A DNA stretch of 61,139 nt, counting the filler, from Basidiobolus ranarum (lineage: Eukaryota), in assembly GCA_040143965.1 (NCBI GenBank). It is 8 parts of 8 records of this genome, joined end to end, with 100 filler letters (N's around TTAATTAATTAA, not from the genome) between each part and the next. Parts side by side here need not be neighbours in the genome. Positions count along the whole stretch, not along the records: positions 30,674 to 38,222 come from JASJQH010001103.1; 7 more parts are not named here. One strand, 5' to 3'. The position numbers and the translations under genes were made by a program. The notes below the pieces were generated by a model that ran no database searches, had not been told where the DNA came from, and saw only the letters and a program-made list of their open reading frames with translations. This document shows, piece after piece, positions 7,577 to 53,611 of this stretch (position 1 is its first letter; every line of letters begins with the position of its first letter).

Positions 7577-7676
7577 NNNNNNNNNNNNNNNNNNNNNNNN
7601 NNNNNNNNNNNNNNNNNNNNTTAATTAATTAANNNNNNNNNNNNNNNNNNNNNNNNNNNNNNNNNNNNNNNNNNNN
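7577..7676. other. Artificial contig spacer (N44-TTAATTAATTAA-N44)
   Basis: Six-frame-stop linker flanked by Ns; an identical spacer occurs seven times. Confidence 0.97.
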
Positions 7677-15249: not shown

Positions 15250-15349
15250 NNNNNNNNNNNNNNNNNNNNNNNNNNNNNNNNNNNNNNNNNNNNTTAATTA
15301 ATTAANNNNNNNNNNNNNNNNNNNNNNNNNNNNNNNNNNNNNNNNNNNN
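15250..15349. other. Artificial contig spacer
   Basis: N-flanked TTAATTAATTAA linker. Confidence 0.97.
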
Positions 15350-22916: not shown

Positions 22917-23016
22917 NNNNNNNNNNNNNNNNNNNNNNNNNNNNNNNNNNNNNNNNNNNNTTAATTAATTAANNNNNNNNNNNNNNNNNNNNNNNNNNNN
23001 NNNNNNNNNNNNNNNN
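22917..23016. other. Artificial contig spacer
   Basis: N-flanked TTAATTAATTAA linker. Confidence 0.97.
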
Positions 23017-30573: not shown

Positions 30574-30673
30574 NNNNNNNNNNNNNNNNNNNNNNNNNNN
30601 NNNNNNNNNNNNNNNNNTTAATTAATTAANNNNNNNNNNNNNNNNNNNNNNNNNNNNNNNNNNNNNNNNNNNN
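30574..30673. other. Artificial contig spacer
   Basis: N-flanked TTAATTAATTAA linker. Confidence 0.97.
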
Positions 30674-30958
30674 CCACCCCCCGTAGTCATCTCAAGATCC
30701 ACCCCCAGCTCCCCCATATCTTCCACCACCATTTCCCCCTTACCTACCACCCGTCGCAGCACCTCCATATTTCCCGCCTTCACCTTCTCCATTACCGCCG
30801 TAGTCACCACCGGATCCACCACCACCACCATAAGAGACACCTTTCCCTTCACCAGTACCAGCATAGTCCTTGGTATTATATGCACGCTCCAATACCGCAG
30901 CGTTAACCATGGCTAAAGTAGAGGCAGCGAAGATGATTTTAGCAGATGAGAATTTCAT
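30674..30958 (-). CDS. Secreted glycine-rich (YGG-repeat) protein, either a short peptide or pseudogenised
   Basis: Signal peptide MKFSSAKIIFAASTLAMVNA, then G/Y-rich repeats. TAA at 30740-30742 and TGA at 30692-30694 interrupt a frame that stays Gly-rich to the contig end. TATA-like tataaata near 31021-31028. Confidence 0.6.
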
Positions 30959-31535
30959 TATTGGATTAAAAAAGACAGAGAAATCTTTGTGATATGAATA
31001 AGCTTAATGATCAGATAGGCTATTTATACTATTTGGTATATTTCTAATTAAGTAGGTGTGTTGTTGATCTCGGGAGTTAACCAAGGGGTAGGTAGTAATA
31101 TGTTGAACAATGTACCTTGTTTCTGATGAATGTTATTTGATCAGAGAAGGATTCATAGTAATCACCATGATTTTCACTTAATTAAAATTGATCGTACAAG
31201 TGAACCATTTCTGAGACATGCAGTTGATCTCTTGAGTTCTCACTAGTTGGAACTGCTTATACCACATGGTTGTAAATAAATTTGTAAATGAATCGAACCT
31301 ACATCAAACTGATGCAAGGATGAAGAGGTGAAATTCTACGAAAAATGTTGCAGGCACAACGTTGCAGCAATGTAGAATGGGAACCGTAGGTAATTGTGTA
31401 TGCGTAACTCAGTGTTTGGAACATAAACCAATGCACTCATCATTTGTTTATTTACTCTGACATGTCTCGCAGAATTTATTGACCATTCCATTTCACTACA
31501 ACTAAAATACAAGGATTTATGGGAGAATCTGTGGA

Positions 31536-33815
31536 TTAGAGTTGATAAAGTAATGTAGTGTCAAACATTCGATATCGCTTCACTAGCCCACCATCTTCAT
31601 CTGTTACTGTGTACGATTTTATACAGCAATCAAACCAAAGTCCATTGTACGGCGTTAACCGAGGGCCATCCCATAATTTACGGAATCTTTGTTGAAGTGC
31701 ATTCCTCGTCTCTTGGTCTGCATATAAGCTACAGAACAATGAAGAGACTTAGATGTATATCGAAATCAAACCATACAATTCGTAAGACTTACTTGGTTGG
31801 TGGTAGACCATCAAAGAAATTCCTCTACATAGTTGGTCGTGGTTAATAAAAGCAGTCTCGGGAATTGGGGATGAATACGTACCGCATCTTTTCCGTACAA
31901 ATACACGGGTAAAGTGGACCGAGAACGATCTTCAAGCAGTAGGGCAAACATATAGATGAATGAGTATTTGCTCATTGCGAAAGAGCATTCAGGGCATTGT
32001 GTGAATTGTTCACGAGTAGGAAGAAGGCTATTCAACATTAAGAATTAGTTGAGAAGGGTCATGTGGTGGTGATGGTGATAGTGACTGGTGGAGATCTACC
32101 TTTTATTACAGTTGGTACAATAGGGCCTCGCGAAATCTTCTATTTTCTCTGGCATGTAGTCGGTAAGACGTGCTCGGATCCGGAATTTCCCATTTACCTA
32201 TAGAAAAGCAGTAAGCTACGAGTAACAATGGATATCAACATTTGGCTATACTTCAGTATGGTTGATTATGTCATCTATAGAGGTGGGAATCTGCGATGTA
32301 TGCTTGATGACTAGACATATATGTCAGAGAAACGCACACTAGGATTAGAAAGGTGGGGACTATACCAGTGATCTGATTATTGTCGAGGCCGATTCCTTCG
32401 GCGATGTTTCTTGAGAACTCTATGTTGGCTTCATGTAGAAACTCCTTTTTCTGTCTAATATGTGGGTCAATAAAGATTCGATATCAGTAGAGGGAGAAGG
32501 GGCTCATCTTTAATACCGGTTCAAATCAGCAACCTGTGGATGGGACTTGTCAAGAAGCATCACATTCGGTTCGCTGTTCTGGCGAGCGCGTTTATCTCCA
32601 TGCAGTTTAAACTCTAAATAGCCCATTGGAGATATCTTTGCATTCAGATTTCGCATCAGAACGTAGCTACCAATTGATAGTTTTTCTCCTATCTCTACAT
32701 TCTCATCCCATAGTAAGCATTGAACAACTCTAGGGCCATAGACTGCATATGGGTCCTCAATATTCCTCGAGGTCACGCTAACATTTACCAGTAGAGATTC
32801 AGATTAGGGCTATCTAGAACCAAAGGTTGAACTTTAGAAATATATGATTCGGTCACTTACGGTAAACTATGGTTTGTTGTATAATCTGTCAGCTGTATCT
32901 CAATACAAGAAGGAAAATGTCCAGGGGAAACTTTGACGACCTTTCAGAGAAAACGGGAAGAAATTGAATATTAACACAATCCTTAAAAATACTATAGCAA
33001 TGGCGTCGTATACTTCTCCAATAAAATCAAAAAAAGTAAGCGGTTTAACTTGTGAAAGTTTCAAGGTCAATCGCTGAGATCTTGGTGGTATATATTCTTT
33101 TATAACAGGTACGGAGAGAGGAGCATCTTTGGCCAGCCACCATTCTTTCATCCATTGAGCAATTTTAAAATCACACTCGTGTGAAACGAAATTACTCGAT
33201 TTTGTAAAAGCTTCAGAATTAAGTGCACCATCGAGTACCATCCAGCTAGAACTTTTTGTAGATATGGCTTGAGTTTTATTCCCAAAAGGTTGAATCTAAG
33301 ATAAAGATACTTAGAGTCAGTAACATTACTCCCTCCATTCTTCACTTAAAAAAGTCAAAAAACGAACGAATTCCTTACTTTCACCTCTTTACAGAACAAT
33401 ACATCCCCTATTTTCATAACCTTAGGAAGTAATTCCACAGAAGACTTGAAATAGTTAATTACAACCGCTGAACCACCGGCAGAATCGGATTTTGGATCAG
33501 TGATAACAGTAGATCCCACATAGTCTGCAAAATAACTCAACTTTGTCACAACTAAGGAAGAAATATTTCATACTTGATTAATAGCTAACCAGTTCCACGG
33601 CTTTTTTTTGGTGACTTAAAGCTAGTTACGATCCCAACCAAATTCGCATAGTTTGAACGAGGTCGCAATTCAAGAAGAGAAGCATAACCTAATTCCCCTC
33701 TCTGTATATGTATATAAAACACCACGATATCATATTAATGTAAATTTGAAACTCTCAGAAACTGTATTGGATTTCTATTGACCTCGTACTCGTTTCGAAT
33801 CTCTGTAAAACTCAT
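31536..33815 (-). CDS. POT1: Protection of telomeres 1 (OB-fold telomere end-binding protein), multi-exon, start codon uncertain
   Basis: OB1 NLVGIVTSFKSPKKSRGTDY...ITDP...LPKVMKIGDVL; OB2 LSQVKPLTFFDFIGEV, LTDYTTN, CLLWDE; C-terminal KFRIRARLTDYMP, CxxC...CPEC, FALLLEDRS and WFDCCIKSY...RYRMFDT. Confidence 0.85.
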
Positions 33816-34091
33816 TTGAGAGCTTCCGCTACTAAGGACGCTATATCACCGGTCTTCGTGTAATCTAAGGAATTTTTGTTCATCAGATGGGATACGAATC
33901 TGGTTGAATGTTTGTTTGTGTGAATTTGATATAGTGAAGTGATTAGATTGGATTGGATTCTCGTCCACTAGAATTAAATTCCAAGATATATGAATTTTAT
34001 TTATGTCAATAAATTACAACATTTCTGATCCAGCATCTGATACCTCGAACAGATGAGAATGTTTACAATTTCAAATGGAAAGTCAAATCAG

Positions 34092-36286
34092 TTATTGCTC
34101 AGCTTTTGGGCTGAACTCGACAGTACACGCAGATCCATCACAAAACCTCTCCATTTCGGGATCTTCTTTATCACCTTTATGGAAATCAACACTCTCCACG
34201 CCATTGGCCATTTCATGGTATTCATCTTCAGTAATAGCTTCATAGGGCATCTGAGGGTAAACACCAGCGGGAATACGAGGAAGGAAGGAGATTCCTTTGA
34301 GTTGGTATTGGTAGTAGTCCAGAGCATGTTTCATTTGTTCACCTTCTGTTTCAGGATCAAAAGTAACAGTACAACTAACTTGGTTGTCCGACCAATAGCG
34401 TTGCAAAAATGCAGTTAGACTGAGTTGCTCCCACATCGACACCTCCCTCAACCCACGCAGCCCTTCGCCATGATCGATGGGAATCTCGACTACATAGGTG
34501 CTCTTTTCCCATACATCGTCTTCAACCTTGTATCCAGCCTTTCGCAGGGGCTCAATCAACTCTGAAGTCTTGGAAATACGTACACGTCTGATACAATAGC
34601 GGGATTCAGGATAATGAAGACCGGGGGTAGCACCTGCAAGAAGCGATACAGTTCCAGATGGTTTAACGGTGGTGGTTTTGATGGAATGTGGAATGCAGAA
34701 CCATTTGGACAGTTTATCATCGACTGCCTGAACCTGGGCGTAACCCTCCTCGCACCACTTCTTGAACTCGTGAATACCATGCTTGCTAATGAATTGAGCA
34801 ATACCACTCAACCCAGTACCGATACGTCGATTACGTAGCATGACTCGGTTAGTTTCAGGCCAGTGGGTTTTGCCCAGTGTAACGGTCTTAGCATACATGA
34901 AGGCCAGTTCGATTGTTTCGAGGAACTCTTCTAGATTCTCATGATTGTTGGGGAAAATCTCCACTAAACAACAGAGCTCGAATGATTCCAAGGTTTGTTC
35001 TAAACAAGGATTTCCACCCAAGGCAAGATGATCCTTCATATCTTTGGGGTCGTCCATCCGTCCATAGTTCTGAGCATTCTCTAGCCAAGCAAAGCCAGGC
35101 TCTCCATTTTGTGCGGCTCTGCTGCAAATGTTGGTATAATCCATGCCCAGACTGGCAAATACTGAGTTATTGCTGGTCCAGCCGTACTCAATACGATGAG
35201 GATTTACTTCGTAATTTTTCAGATCGACATACTCCTCGTCATTTGGATCTCCAAAGGCAATCTCTGCAGTTCTACGAATCTAAGATAAAGTTAGTATTCA
35301 GTTCAATCACATGATAACGTTCAATCGCATGTTCTTACGTTGCCAGACACCACGCATTTACCAATCAGATTCATGATATCGACGATGGTGGTAACTGAGA
35401 TTGGTGCGCCGATATTCTTCTCCAGAATCTCTCGTACCTGCTTATGAAGATCCATGAGAGCGGAGGAGCCAGAAGAAACTCCGCCAAAGCCTTTGATGGG
35501 AAGACCAGCTGGTCGGATTTTCTCATAATCAAATTCTTGTACCGCCATACTTGGGTCGAAATACGACTCTATAAGAAGCTCCAGCGATTTAACCCATCCC
35601 TCACGAGAATCTTCAATAACGTAAGTCTCAGTATTGCTGCGATCAGGGCTAGTGATATTGATATGTCTCTCTTTGGCAATAGCTGCGCCTCTTGTATCGA
35701 AGCCCACACCCACACCAAGCATGGAGGCATCCATAAGGAAGGTGAAAGGACGACTGGGCTGGTGTTCACCATCGAACATGCAAGTAGTGCTTACAAATGC
35801 GCAATTATTTAAGGCAGTGTAAATGCCACGCTCCTCAGTCAAGGGGGATCCCATTGCCCAAAGCCCTCTACCAGGTGGAAGGAATTTCATATAGAAGATG
35901 CGATCGAACATCTTCTGAGCGGTGATTTGAGCAGCAGCAGAGTTCCAACCCAATTCATTTTGCTCCATATGACGCTTTTGCATATTGAATGTACCATTGA
36001 CTACTCTCTCAACTGTTTCGTACCTGAATGAAAGTGGGTTAGACAAAGTGAGACTATTTCACTGAACACACACACAATTATACCATTGTTCACGCTCTCC
36101 ATTCTCCTTGAGACGAGAGTACGTTCTTTGATACACGATATTGCCCAAACCATTGAACCCAAATGGTGCCTTTTTGTGCTTATACTCGTCAACAAACTCG
36201 GAATCCAATTGAAATTGTGTCTTGTGCTTGTGACTGCTATTAGCAGCAGTTGAAGAGACAGCTTGAAGGTTCTTTACGGCACCCAT
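34092..36286 (-). CDS. nrdJ: Class II adenosylcobalamin-dependent ribonucleotide reductase (monomeric RTPR/NrdJm type), ~691 aa, two spliceosomal introns
   Basis: Exons 36286-36084, 36023-35339 and 35279-34092; introns 36083-36024 and 35338-35280 are GT-AG with ctaac branch points. Motifs PFGFNGLGNIVYQRTYSR, KFLPPGRGLWAMG, ALNNCAF, DSREGWV, GFGGVSSG, VSGNIRRTAEI, NGEPG, GGNPCLEQTLESFELCCLVE, RNRRIG, TTVKPSGTVSLLAG, SDNQVSCTVTFD, YPQMPYE and a C-terminal CDGSAC pair. Confidence 0.95.
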
Positions 36287-36350
36287 TGCTTTGTAATAAT
36301 AATAGAAATATGAAGTTGTAATGATATTAAACACTCCTTGAGCGAGGCCC

Positions 36351-36360
36351 TATTTATACA
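36351..36360 (-). promoter_or_regulatory. Candidate TATA box of the class II RNR gene
   Basis: Reads TGTATAAATA on the minus strand, ~65 nt upstream of the ATG; motif match only. Confidence 0.45.
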
Positions 36361-37910
36361 TGGAGGATGGAGTAAGGCGGGACTAGTTCAGGCTGTACAG
36401 GTTATTTCTCCTAAATGAATCTTCAATGCTTGCCGCAGTCATTTCAACCGCTTCACTGGAAATCATCAATGACTTTTCTCCTTTTGGAAACTGTCTAATG
36501 CTGAGCTACAGCGCGACGGTCTTCGTGTATTTGACGTGTTTTTACTAAATCAGGTCGGTATTTTCCGGTAGCCATCTCGCCAACCAGCTACCCAAAGTGT
36601 GATTCGCTATGTTTTTCATGTTATCATTTGTAATAAATGATCGTTGTGAGAGGAAACAAAAACAAGCGAAGTCTTTGTGGACCGAATTGTAGGGTTAGGT
36701 ATCAAAAGGATCGTTACCCAAACAATGAGATGGTAAAAGAACTAGAGCAAGTGTGGTGAATACCGTTGTTGTTGTAAATCATAACACTTTACTGGTCTAG
36801 AGCCGTCTTCTCCTTTGATTCATCTCTGGGCTAGATAGATCTACCTACCCGAAGTCATTATTGCTTTTTTTCTATCTTGATAACTGTCAATTATGCCTAG
36901 ATGATCAGTGAACATTCGAGAATCCCACTTGTCCTTATAGAATTGTTGACTGAGAAACCAAGGAGACAGTTCGAGTAGTTCTGGTACTTTACATACTAGT
37001 GCGACCCAACCCAAGTAACTTTGCTATTTTCTGGTGTGAATTTCATAACCAAACTCAAGTTAGATTGTCAAATAGTTGGAACTTTAGCCCTAACCCTTCA
37101 GATATCATCGTTGAATGCCTAAGCTTCGTAAATTGTAATGTATTGACTGTTATTAGCTATTTATCGCTATTTCATTGACACGTGATTGCTGGATTGTTTT
37201 ATTATCTTAAAATTTTCTTGATGTTGTGAATAAATATCGTAAAGCTTATCTCAATAAATACTCATTCACATGGTTGATTGGGTAGAGAATTACTGGAAAA
37301 GAGTTTCCGATTTAGGTTGTGGAATATATAATCATTGCTGACAATATTTGCATTGTAGTGGAAGTGTCCTGCTCCTACCGGATATTTCCAATACTGTATA
37401 CAATGACCGCTTCTATCTCTTCGATCAGAAAGTACAACATATACTTAGAATCGCTACTCATCACGTGTTAACGTATATTTTCAAACCGCTTACATGCATT
37501 GTTGGATATTTGCCAAAGCAAATACTGTTCTTTCTTTATAACTAGTAATGTGTAGGTTTTGGATTATACTTATACATGTATAGCTTGATTTATTCTGTCT
37601 AACTGCAAGGTAGGTGATATTGATAATTTTACGATTGGATGCTTTCGAAAGAATCCTGAAAATATTGGAAGAATTTAAGATGTGTGTGAGTTTTAAGATA
37701 TGGAATTATTATTAGTCCGATAGATACTTTTTATTTAACTATATTTGCACATTTGTAGCTATTACTAAATAATCAATGAAATTATGCTTTGAACATTTGT
37801 AAGAGTGAAGTGATTAACTTTAACAATTTTGAACTTTCAAATCCTACTTGACAAATTATTGCCTATTTCATATATTGATTTTGTTGAAAATGACTTAGCT
37901 TATGCATTAA

Positions 37911-38222
37911 TTTTGGGAGCCAGTGAAGGTAGTCTGGAGAAATAGAGAAATTGGTGGTTTTCACTTATTCATTTGTTGAGTCAAAAGTTAATATTTTTAG
38001 TTTTATCAAGATGTAAACAAATTAATGTGTAGAATGTGTTAAAGAAGGTCCCAGGAACATGTGTGCAAAGTTTGGGGCTTCTAGCACAAGTTTGAAAAAT
38101 CTATATATCTCAGAACTTCTAAGTTGGTGTCAATATTCTAAGTAAATTCCTTATGAGAATAATTGATAATATCTTAGTGAATTATAAGATAACTAAGTAC
38201 TATAAGCTATATATGACTATAT
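37911..38222 (-). repeat. Inverted copy of the TG...CA repeat, running into the contig end
   Basis: Reverse complement of the repeat (gaaggtcccaggaacatgtgtgcaaagtttggggcttctagcacaag; aagctatatatgactatat). Confidence 0.85.
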
Positions 38223-38322
38223 NNNNNNNNNNNNNNNNNNNNNNNNNNNNNNNNNNNNNNNNNNNNTTAATTAATTAANNNNNNNNNNNNNNNNNNNNNN
38301 NNNNNNNNNNNNNNNNNNNNNN
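38223..38322. other. Artificial contig spacer
   Basis: N-flanked TTAATTAATTAA linker. Confidence 0.97.
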
Positions 38323-43519: not shown

Positions 43520-45560
43520 TGAGGCTGGTTCATATATATCTCCCCAGCAAGCTCACCATTCACAAAAGTAGCTTTAACATCCATGAGTTTAATAATAAAC
43601 TGATATTTGTCTGAAGTTGAGAATCAAACTAATCAAATTAAACTCTGCCATAGGAGCAAAAGTTTCTGTAAAATCTATTCCTGGTGTTTAGGGATAGCCT
43701 TTTGCTACTAGTCTAGCATTGAAACTGTCAATATTGCCTTCAGAGTTGTATCTAACTTTATACACCCATTGGCAGCCAATTGATTTAATATCATTGGGTA
43801 AGTTGGTTAAATCCAAGTTTGATGATCAATCAAAGCTCAGCACTCATCATCCACTGCAGATCTGTAGACAAAACTATGTTTGAAAGGTCAACAGGAACGC
43901 TATTTTCTTCATTGTTTTAGCTTGAATTGATTTAACTGATTGGATCAGAAGAAAATTGACTTCATCATCATCCAAGGTCATTTTTTGGTGAAAATGTTTT
44001 AATTCCATTTAACAAAACATTCCTGTACTTGGTTAACTTTGAAAATTTGGCACCATAAAGTCTGTAGGACTTAATTTTAGAGCAATAACCAAGAGATATG
44101 CATTTTTTACTCTTTGGATCAAATTCAGACTGATTTGTGGGTGTAATTTTGACATAAGCAATGCATCCCAAGAACCTGAAATATTTTACATCTGGTTTAA
44201 CTCCAAACCAAGCTTGATATAGTGCAGAAATAGACAGACTTCCTGTAAAACTCTTATTTTTCAGATACACAGCTGTGGCAACAGACTGCATCCACAAGTT
44301 ATGAGATAAATATTGCACATTTACCATATATTCTGCTATTTCTGTTATAGTCCTGTTAGCTCTTTCAGCAACTCCATTTTTTTGCAGTGAATAGGGGGCA
44401 GAGGTTATAGCTCAATTCCTTTATTTTGCAAAAGTGAATAAATAGTGTTGAAGTATATTCTTCACCATTTTCAGTACATTTTTTTGTTCATTGTTGTTCC
44501 AGTTTCAATCTCCCCTGTGCTAGAAAATCTCTCAAAATAGAGAGAGCTTCTGCTTTTCTCTCCATAAAGTAGACCAAGTGTCTCTTGCATATTCATTCAT
44601 GATGTTACTAAATATCTTTTTCCACCTAAAGATATATTTTGCATAGGTCTACACAAATCTAAATGGAGTAGATCCAATTTTTTGACAGATTAAAATAAAC
44701 CGGAGCTCTTGAATGGTTGCCTGGCTTGTTTTCCATATATACAACCCTCACTAACTTCCAGTTTGGTTGGGAGGTTAAGTTGAATTCCAGAAATTAGGCA
44801 GTTTTTAATCTTTTACTCAAATAAACAAATCCAAAATGGTCAAATCTCTTATGCCATAGTTGAATGGTTTCTTGATTGGAATAACTTCAATTTACAAACA
44901 AATCTGTTGGACTATGTGCGAGTTTGTATAGGATCTGATTCTTTTCTTAACAAGCTAAATAACTCCCATATTGATCAGTAATGGTGCACCCTGACTTATT
45001 GATGTTGAATTTTCAGTCTTCTGAGGTGCTATGCATATAAATATTAAATTTTTGGCAATATCTGGAAAATGTAGTACATTGTGAAAAGTATTCACTTTCT
45101 GTTCAAAAGCTCCAGTTAAATTGACTAGAATTGTTCCCATTGCAATGGCATCAAATGTGCAGTGATCTCACATGAATACTTTTCTAATTGGTATTTCTTC
45201 ATAATCCACACACATATGTTTTCAACTGTCAAATGTTCCGAGGCTTCAGAAGCAATATACCACATCAGAGAATCCTTCTTTCTAGTCTTGAACAGAGCAT
45301 ATATGAACAAGTGATCTTCTGATGCAACCACATCTTCAGATTCAGGACATTTTTTTTTGCAATTCTTGTAGAGCAATCTTTGCTTATATGGCCAGTATTG
45401 ATACAGTAATCACAGTAAGTGTTACTTTTCTTCTTAAAGTGGTTTTGGCCTTTATATGAAGGTTTCCCATAGCCTATTAGAGCATTTTCTTCATTCTTTT
45501 GGTTGGATCCTGATTTGCATAAATCTTCATCCAGAAGTCTGCTAAATAGTCATCTAGAGA
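43520..45560 (-). mobile_element. Degenerate Ty1/copia LTR-retrotransposon gag-pol remnant
   Basis: Copia domain order: Zn knuckle CDYCINTGHISKDC (~45375-45420), protease WYIASEASEHLT, pre-integrase LWHKRFDH, integrase LHLDLC...NGVAERANRTI...FGVKPDVKYFRFLGC, then RT PIGCQWVYK...ARLVAKGY..GIDFTETFAP...MDVKATFVNGEL..EIYMNQP, where it breaks off. Confidence 0.9.
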
Positions 45561-45867: not shown

Positions 45868-45967
45868 NNNNNNNNNNNNNNNNNNNNNNNNNNNNNNNNN
45901 NNNNNNNNNNNTTAATTAATTAANNNNNNNNNNNNNNNNNNNNNNNNNNNNNNNNNNNNNNNNNNNN
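45868..45967. other. Artificial contig spacer
   Basis: N-flanked TTAATTAATTAA linker. Confidence 0.97.
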
Positions 45968-53511: not shown

Positions 53512-53611
53512 NNNNNNNNNNNNNNNNNNNNNNNNNNNNNNNNNNNNNNNNNNNNTTAATTAATTAANNNNNNNNNNNNNNNNNNNNNNNNNNNNNNNNN
53601 NNNNNNNNNNN
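53512..53611. other. Artificial contig spacer
   Basis: N-flanked TTAATTAATTAA linker. Confidence 0.97.

Follow-up and report, generated by a model that had tools for sequence, protein, structure and literature searches.

The 61,139-nucleotide (nt) stretch of DNA considered here, termed the window throughout and joined from parts of a Basidiobolus ranarum genome assembly (GCA_040143965.1), carries on its minus strand, at 34092-36286, a gene, nrdJ, that very probably encodes a monomeric, adenosylcobalamin (AdoCbl)-dependent ribonucleoside-triphosphate reductase (RTPR, or NrdJm) and that is, under the same reading, a native nuclear gene of Basidiobolus, assignable to B. ranarum by its neighbour gene and inherited vertically. 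As judged from the sequence, the product is apparently a canonical and functional NrdJm, i.e., a ribonucleotide reductase (RNR) of class II. The coding sequence occupies exactly the span that an earlier note on this DNA had put forward, and the description given there, of a monomeric class II RNR with an intact frame of about 691 amino acids (aa), two canonical introns and the expected cysteines (ALNNC, NPCLE, ELCCL and CDGSAC), agrees with the gene model, with the matches to the model TIGR02505 and to Pfam domains, and with the alignment to the solved structure 1L1L, in which each of these motifs faces a catalytic residue.

Gene model, domains and catalytic residues

Splicing of the three exons (Table 1) yields a protein of 691 aa. 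Both introns hold in-frame stops if retained, and neither can be read through, to judge from the stop-to-stop open reading frames (ORFs); the reading frame thus needs two GT..AG introns, and therefore a native origin of the gene is favoured. At both exon junctions the joined sequence agrees with that of the independently annotated 699-aa protein P0001 of Basidiobolus meristosporus CBS 931.73, which carries in its source the names "PFL-like glycyl radical enzyme" and "ribonucleoside-triphosphate reductase". At intron 1, EREQW is followed by YETVERV in nrdJ vs EREQWFETVERV in P0001 (consensus EREQW-(F/Y)ETVERV), and the match to the Pfam family PF17975 spans this intron, its exon 1 part ending at profile position 41 and its exon 2 part resuming at 43. 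At intron 2, VVSGN is followed by IRRTAE in nrdJ vs VVAGNIRRTAE in P0001, and the same junction falls in the 1L1L alignment between VVAGN and VRRSAE, at residues 316/317. The TATA box of the earlier note is present as TATAAATA at the position given in Table 1, but it is weak evidence, because TATAAA occurs 62 times on both strands of the window, i.e., about once per kb. No cobalamin riboswitch or other Rfam family reached its gathering score anywhere in the window, and none attained E <= 1 within 33700-37300; the antisense ORFs over nrdJ and the ORFs upstream of it gave no Pfam match (0/8, four antisense ORFs over nrdJ included), and the region encodes nothing else.

Table 1. Positions of nrdJ, its flanking elements and its neighbour, counted along the window
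Feature	Position	Strand	Remarks
nrdJ exon 1	36084..36286	-	ATG at 36286; residues 1-67 plus 2 nt; RNR_Alpha begins here
nrdJ intron 1	36024..36083	-	60 nt, GT..AG, phase 2; in-frame TGA if retained
nrdJ exon 2	35339..36023	-	remainder of RNR_Alpha, ALNNC Cys (C119 equivalent), monomer-specific insertion domain
nrdJ intron 2	35280..35338	-	59 nt, GTAAG..TACTAAC..TAG, phase 0
nrdJ exon 3	34092..35279	-	395 codons plus TAA (34094-34092); catalytic barrel, NPCLE, ELCC, C-terminal CDGSAC
TATA-like TATAAATA	36351..36358	-	72 nt before the nrdJ ATG; consensus match only
AATAAA, polyadenylation-signal-like hexamer	33996..34001	-	90 nt past the nrdJ stop; consensus match only
POT1 (protection of telomeres)	31536..33815	-	multi-exon, downstream of nrdJ on the same strand; assigned by Pfam and protein P0241
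Artificial linker N44-TTAATTAATTAA-N44	30574..30673		left edge of the nrdJ/POT1 segment
Artificial linker	38223..38322		right edge of the nrdJ/POT1 segment

The nrdJ protein was scored exon by exon. The Pfam matches, all above their gathering scores, were RNR_Alpha (PF17975; profile positions 1-41 in exon 1, E 6.1e-12, and a further match in exon 2, E 1.3e-21), RNR-II_ins_dom (PF21995) in exon 2 (45.9 bits vs a cut-off of 27, E 7.5e-12), and the Ribonuc_red_lgC barrel (PF02867) in exon 3 (E 2.7e-08), with no ATP-cone among them. The second of these is the insertion domain separating monomeric from dimeric NrdJ, and such an insert has been described for eukaryotic NrdJs (PMC3019208). The best NCBIfam model was TIGR02505 (adenosylcobalamin-dependent ribonucleoside-triphosphate reductase), matched colinearly and over its full length by exon 3 with 194.9 bits (E 2e-57, profile 277-723) and by exon 2 with 128.7 bits in two stretches, the best of which covers profile 177-276 (E 2e-37); the 90%-identical P0001 scored 354.3 bits, above the whole-protein cut-off of 340.05. 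The protein falls outside the dimeric class II enzymes (TIGR02504, 60 bits vs a cut-off of 399.95; NF006417, 39.8 bits vs 961) and outside the class I large subunits (TIGR02506, 14.4 bits vs 341.05).

The only solved relative found by sequence was the RTPR of Lactobacillus leichmannii (PDB 1L1L; E 3.3e-59 for exon 3 and 8.2e-24 for exon 2), the structural and mechanistic reference for this enzyme type, with which nrdJ aligns colinearly over residues 50-738 in four stretches, exon 2 covering 50-316. Thus, ALNNC is aligned to SLNNC ending at residue 119, GGNPCLEQ to GTNPCGEI (residues 404-411), the first Cys of ELCC to C419 in the printed alignment, and CDGSAC to CEGGAC (residues 731-736), so that C119, N406, C408, E410, C419, C731 and C736 of 1L1L all have identical residues in nrdJ. 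We take C408, with the flanking N406 and E410, to be the thiyl-radical Cys on the finger loop, C119 and C419 to be the redox-active cysteine pair, and C731/C736 to be the C-terminal tail that shuttles reducing equivalents. The 35 eukaryotic rows of the tree described below retain LNNC, NPCxE and ExC without exception (35/35 each), and the CxxxxC tail is found in 26/35, nrdJ here included. The catalytic residues and the insertion domain are common to both enzymes, but the similarity of nrdJ to the L. leichmannii protein is moderate only, the latter being bacterial and intron-less, whereas nrdJ stands in a separate clade of eukaryotic and environmental sequences.

Relatives and phylogenetic placement

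With nrdJ exon 3 as the query and a protein collection clustered at 90% identity, 5408 proteins were found at E <= 0.001 among 8000 scored candidates of 693-2000 aa (long class) and 5058 at E <= 1e-100 among 8000 candidates of 217-692 aa (short class). The best match was P0001 (91%), and no protein more than 91% identical to nrdJ exon 3 appeared in either length class of this clustered collection; because of the clustering, the nrdJ protein itself may sit inside the four-member cluster of P0001. The next matches were other Basidiobolus paralogues at 67-70%, with further fungal matches in Calcarisporiella, Umbelopsis, Glomeromycotina, Endogone, Kickxellales, Gonapodya, Allomyces and Blastocladiella, and non-fungal eukaryotic ones in ichthyosporeans, amoebozoans, heteroloboseans, oomycetes and chlorarachniophytes. 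Metagenomes supplied many unnamed proteins at 60-67%, and cultured phages contributed 1224 matching records, all below 60% identity (best 46.7%). In the prokaryotic genomes, an alignment-based scan gave relatives for 375 of the 399 pattern matches, and a scan with patterns taken from a single protein, whose peptide patterns are poorly conserved, gave none. The prokaryotic matches of 60-66% were contigs of metagenome-assembled genomes (MAGs) of scattered taxonomy; the isolate genomes among the best 80 loci were those of Flammeovirga, Algivirga, Psychroflexus and Flavobacteriaceae, 50-55% identical.

The nearest non-eukaryotic relatives (loci L001-L012, proteins P0126-P0240) are 60-67% identical, 645-690 aa long and intron-less, and come from marine and other metagenomes and from MAGs labelled as archaeon, Anaerolineales, Flavobacteriales, Rickettsiales, Pelagibacter and Nanoarchaeota. 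Because these labels are so scattered, a mobile or viral carrier, or else mis-binned contigs, may be suggested for these environmental relatives.

A phylogeny of this kind had been proposed as a check in the earlier note, and it places nrdJ within Basidiobolus, fungal and eukaryotic clades. A quick tree was built of 60 rows (nrdJ, three phages, 42 proteins from the list of 240 and 14 loci from the list of 80), and a careful maximum-likelihood (ML) tree of 47 rows and 679 columns, with supports given as ultrafast bootstrap/SH-like approximate likelihood-ratio test (UFBoot/SH-aLRT), from which 13 rows were left out: the three phages, Bradymonadaceae, Env_136, Env_145, Env_216, a Rickettsiales MAG, a partial B. 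ranarum protein, Umbelopsis PMI, Glomus cerebriforme, Cyclobacteriaceae and Algivirga. Neither the 1L1L nor the Euglena sequence was among the rows of the trees. In the careful tree, nrdJ and its B. meristosporus counterpart form a clade with 100/100, all Basidiobolus rows with 88/98, the Fungi with 98/98 and all eukaryotes with 96/94, and the same clades were obtained in the 60-row tree. The fungal subtree approximates the species tree, with the zoosporic lineages and an aphelid at its base, followed by Kickxellales and then by Mucoromycota with Basidiobolus. The deeper order among the eukaryotic supergroups has bootstrap values of 38-57%, and the grouping of environmental sequences as sister to the eukaryotes is weak as well (45/33). 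The position in the fungal clade, together with the two GT..AG introns, assigns the gene to the fungal and eukaryotic NrdJm clade. Vertical descent with lineage-specific duplication fits this tree, and contamination or a recent transfer does not; nrdJ is accordingly probably a vertical descendant of an NrdJm that early fungi already possessed, and belongs to a set of several paralogues produced by duplication inside the genus.

Paralogues, genomic neighbourhood and alternative explanations

P0001 is the orthologue of nrdJ in another species. Its identity to nrdJ amounts to 91% in exon 3, 89% in exon 2 and 90% across the 664-672 columns aligned; it is sister to nrdJ with the full support given above, and shares the N-terminus MGAVKN, the sequence over both exon junctions and the motifs; it differs in that the N-terminal low-complexity stretch and the C-terminal tail are a few residues longer and in having CDGASC where nrdJ has CDGSAC. 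The clade of nrdJ is designated clade A. At least two further paralogue proteins, P0121 and P0125, are found in B. ranarum, and clades A and C, both with long stems, each hold both Basidiobolus species; therefore, the duplication that separated A from C predates the split of the species.

The C-terminal tails vary among these proteins. In clade C (P0006 of B. meristosporus and P0121 of B. ranarum), a C-x10-C tail, FCDW[GS]PYMFDSAC, takes the place of the canonical C-x4-C, which is unlikely to be an annotation error, because it is conserved in both species, and the oomycete rows have a CxxC tail; such deviant tails may correspond to a different reductant partner. P0006 (879 aa) has, in addition, an extra N-terminal region of about 180 residues before RNR_Alpha, which could be a real fusion or an artefact of the gene model.

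Several explanations other than that of a general-purpose, functional NrdJm can be considered in this context. The one that survives best, although it is itself unlikely, is that nrdJ is active but sub- or neofunctionalised, serving a life stage, hypoxia or an organelle, or having an altered preference for substrate or reductant, and is not a general back-up RNR. It would be in keeping with a duplication older than the species split, with the long stems of both clades and with the clade C tail, C-x10-C vs C-x4-C, conserved in the two species, since the paralogues thereby diverge in a functional region; the clade A copy, however, keeps the canonical tail and every catalytic residue, and no sign of changed activity is seen in the nrdJ sequence. 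Considerably less probable is a decaying or silent paralogue, intact by chance and unexpressed or unneeded, with class I RNR and the other NrdJ copies covering its function. The number of Basidiobolus copies (five in B. meristosporus, besides the additional ones in B. ranarum) and the long stem branch of clade A (0.30 changes per column) would speak for it, but the full 691-aa frame has no frameshift and keeps all catalytic residues, the splice sites, the branch-point-like TACTAAC and the TATA-like and AATAAA-like elements are in place, and the 90% identity to the orthologue over 664-672 columns exceeds the 83% found in the one POT1 exon compared. That exon (32903-33295, minus strand) is 83% identical to P0242, the POT1 of B. 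meristosporus, vs 90-91% for nrdJ, which suggests, as a rough yardstick drawn from one exon, that nrdJ may be more constrained than its neighbour.

This neighbour is the linkage evidence for the native origin. Multi-exon POT1 was recognised by the Pfam domains POT1PC (E 2.2e-12), POT1 (22.6 bits) and, weakly, OB_POT1A, and by the 509-aa protein P0241, named "hypothetical protein K7432_012539 [Basidiobolus ranarum]" and "Protection of telomeres protein", which maps exon by exon from the ATG at 33815 to 31539 and is 100% identical in the queried exon. The two genes lie head to tail, with 276 nt and no N between the nrdJ stop and the POT1 ATG, and share one N-free segment of 7,549 nt (30674-38222), in line with the POT1 gene reported by the earlier note about 280 nt away on the same contig. 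The window contains seven identical 100-nt linkers, N44-TTAATTAATTAA-N44 (7577-7676, 15250-15349, 22917-23016, 30574-30673, 38223-38322, 45868-45967 and 53512-53611), with stops in all six frames, and the lengths of the internal segments that they bound fall steadily from 7,573 to 7,544 nt. Such a series marks the window as a chain of separate contigs sorted by size, and not as one piece of chromosome; neighbourhood across a linker is therefore meaningless and POT1 alone counts as linkage evidence; the chitin synthase, the V-ATPase and the other genes of the window were rejected as such evidence, being on other contigs beyond the linkers. A chitin synthase, a V-ATPase c subunit, DBR1, a mitochondrial carrier and a retroelement fragment on those contigs mark the assembly as fungal, and the GC content at third codon positions is 0.44-0.46 in nrdJ vs 0.36-0.44 for exons on the window's other contigs.

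That nrdJ is a bacterial or phage contaminant, or the product of a very recent horizontal transfer, misjoined to fungal DNA has a negligible probability and is already contradicted. This explanation could draw on the mainly prokaryotic and viral occurrence of class II RNRs, on the 60-67% identity of unnamed proteins from metagenomes and MAGs, and on the shortness of the contig. Against it, the frame requires two spliceosomal introns, an independent Basidiobolus genome has a 90%-identical orthologue, nrdJ is nested in well-supported fungal and eukaryotic clades, the POT1 gene that shares its N-free stretch matches a protein named B. ranarum with 100% identity, and the base composition of nrdJ resembles that of other exons. 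The view of the earlier note that bacterial contamination is very unlikely is thereby upheld by the trees, the introns and the linkage to POT1.

Other features of the window may be listed briefly. The nrdJ contig also carries a short ORF (30743-31003, minus strand) that starts with MKFSSAKIIFAASTLAMVNA and passes through a glycine-rich low-complexity stretch into the contig end; it gave no Pfam match and looks like a secreted glycine-rich protein. The large chitin synthase gene, on a separate contig at 55454-59261 (minus strand), is interrupted by short introns of about 50 nt and has Chitin_synth_2 matches at E 1.4e-146 and 1.5e-97 and a CHS4-like domain. On another contig, a retroelement polyprotein fragment (43971-44411, minus strand) matches a retroviral polymerase SH3-like domain (E 5.5e-17), and no long frame is intact in its surroundings.

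Proposed mechanism, physiological role and significance

The mechanism proposed for the nrdJ product is the established one of RTPR, on the strength of the full conservation of its residues. Homolysis of the Co-C bond of AdoCbl would generate a thiyl radical on the Cys of NPCLE, which would take the 3'-H from the ribonucleoside triphosphate; the electrons would be supplied by the cysteine pair of ALNNC and ELCC, and the CDGSAC tail, with thioredoxin, would re-reduce this pair. The inserted domain PF21995 would replace the dimer interface, with the allosteric specificity effector bound there.

Eukaryotic monomeric NrdJs have been described previously (PMC3019208, PMC3605638). Those of Euglena gracilis and Dictyostelium discoideum are, like nrdJ, members of the eukaryotic NrdJm group, dictyostelids falling in the same 96/94 clade, but they come from other supergroups than the host of nrdJ; they coexist with class I RNR or replace it and rely on external cobalamin, and until that work the Euglena enzyme alone, among eukaryotic class II RNRs, had been studied (PMC3605638). 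The usual eukaryotic enzyme, with its class Ia large subunit (NrdA/RNR1), shares the PF02867 barrel family and the conserved-Cys radical chemistry, but needs the radical subunit NrdB with a di-iron tyrosyl radical, whereas enzymes of the nrdJ type use cobalamin, need no NrdB and are indifferent to oxygen (PMC3605638).

As for fungi, cobalamin enzymes are stated to be widespread in the early-diverging lineages and absent from Dikarya (PMC9457484). In a survey of 59 non-Dikarya genomes, 24 class II RNRs were recorded in 13 genomes among the rows listed, five of them in B. meristosporus, the most of any genome among those rows (Table S1), which has, furthermore, three CblAdo transferases, two MetH, and one each of methylmalonyl-CoA mutase, epimerase, MeaB and CblD; class I RNR was present in all the genomes analysed, and the fungal class II sequences formed a clade beside Fonticula and oomycetes (PMC8085122). 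Hence, nrdJ is an ordinary representative of a kind already known, since class II RNRs of non-Dikarya fungi are in print (PMC8085122), and its importance as a discovery is little, because the five-member Basidiobolus family is published and the 90%-identical orthologue annotated. The characterisation of such genes in early-diverging fungi as rare rather than unprecedented, given in the earlier note, was right as to precedent but understated it, in view of the five copies of B. meristosporus and the orthologue already named.

In physiological terms, the enzyme may serve beside class I RNR as a back-up that depends on neither oxygen nor iron. Basidiobolus inhabits the gut, and such a back-up would use cobalamin obtained from bacteria, e.g., in that habitat. 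The inference of the earlier note that the organism scavenges B12, can supply deoxyribonucleoside triphosphates under hypoxia or iron limitation and has adenosylation machinery is supported by proxy only, through the cofactor-handling genes of the sister species.

Several points weigh against a native, functional NrdJm with such a role. The exon pieces, scored apart, total 323.6 bits against TIGR02505, just below the whole-protein cut-off of 340.05, and the contig joining nrdJ to POT1 extends over only 7.5 kb. No class I RNR or B12-related genes were seen on the window's other contigs among the 39 ORF pieces scanned, 38 of which came from 69 ORFs of at least 85 aa, with overlapping antisense and already scanned ORFs left out. 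In B. meristosporus the CblC count is 0 in the available rows of the survey (PMC8085122). The Dictyostelium homologue was insoluble and its role is called enigmatic by the authors, as is that of class II RNR generally in eukaryotes that also have class I, and AdoCbl gave no rescue of the development of hydroxyurea-treated Dictyostelium (PMC3605638). A literature search, with subscription-only papers outside its coverage, found no biochemical work on a class II RNR from a fungus, nor a study on RNR in Basidiobolus.

A further and rather doubtful proposal, to be held only tentatively, is that Basidiobolus kept and multiplied an ancestral fungal NrdJm for a B12-rich, oxygen-poor gut and that the clade A copy is specialised, being hypoxia- or stage-specific, insensitive to hydroxyurea and iron-sparing. 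Basidiobolus is also an occasional human pathogen, and if the proposal were true, such a copy might matter for growth in human tissue. With regard to the preferred reading of nrdJ as a native and apparently functional NrdJm, this compact and canonical gene of three exons would lend itself conveniently to a first assay of a class II RNR from fungi, and it would be suited to asking whether an early-diverging fungus, when its supply of B12 is changed, grows differently under hypoxia or differs in its sensitivity to hydroxyurea.

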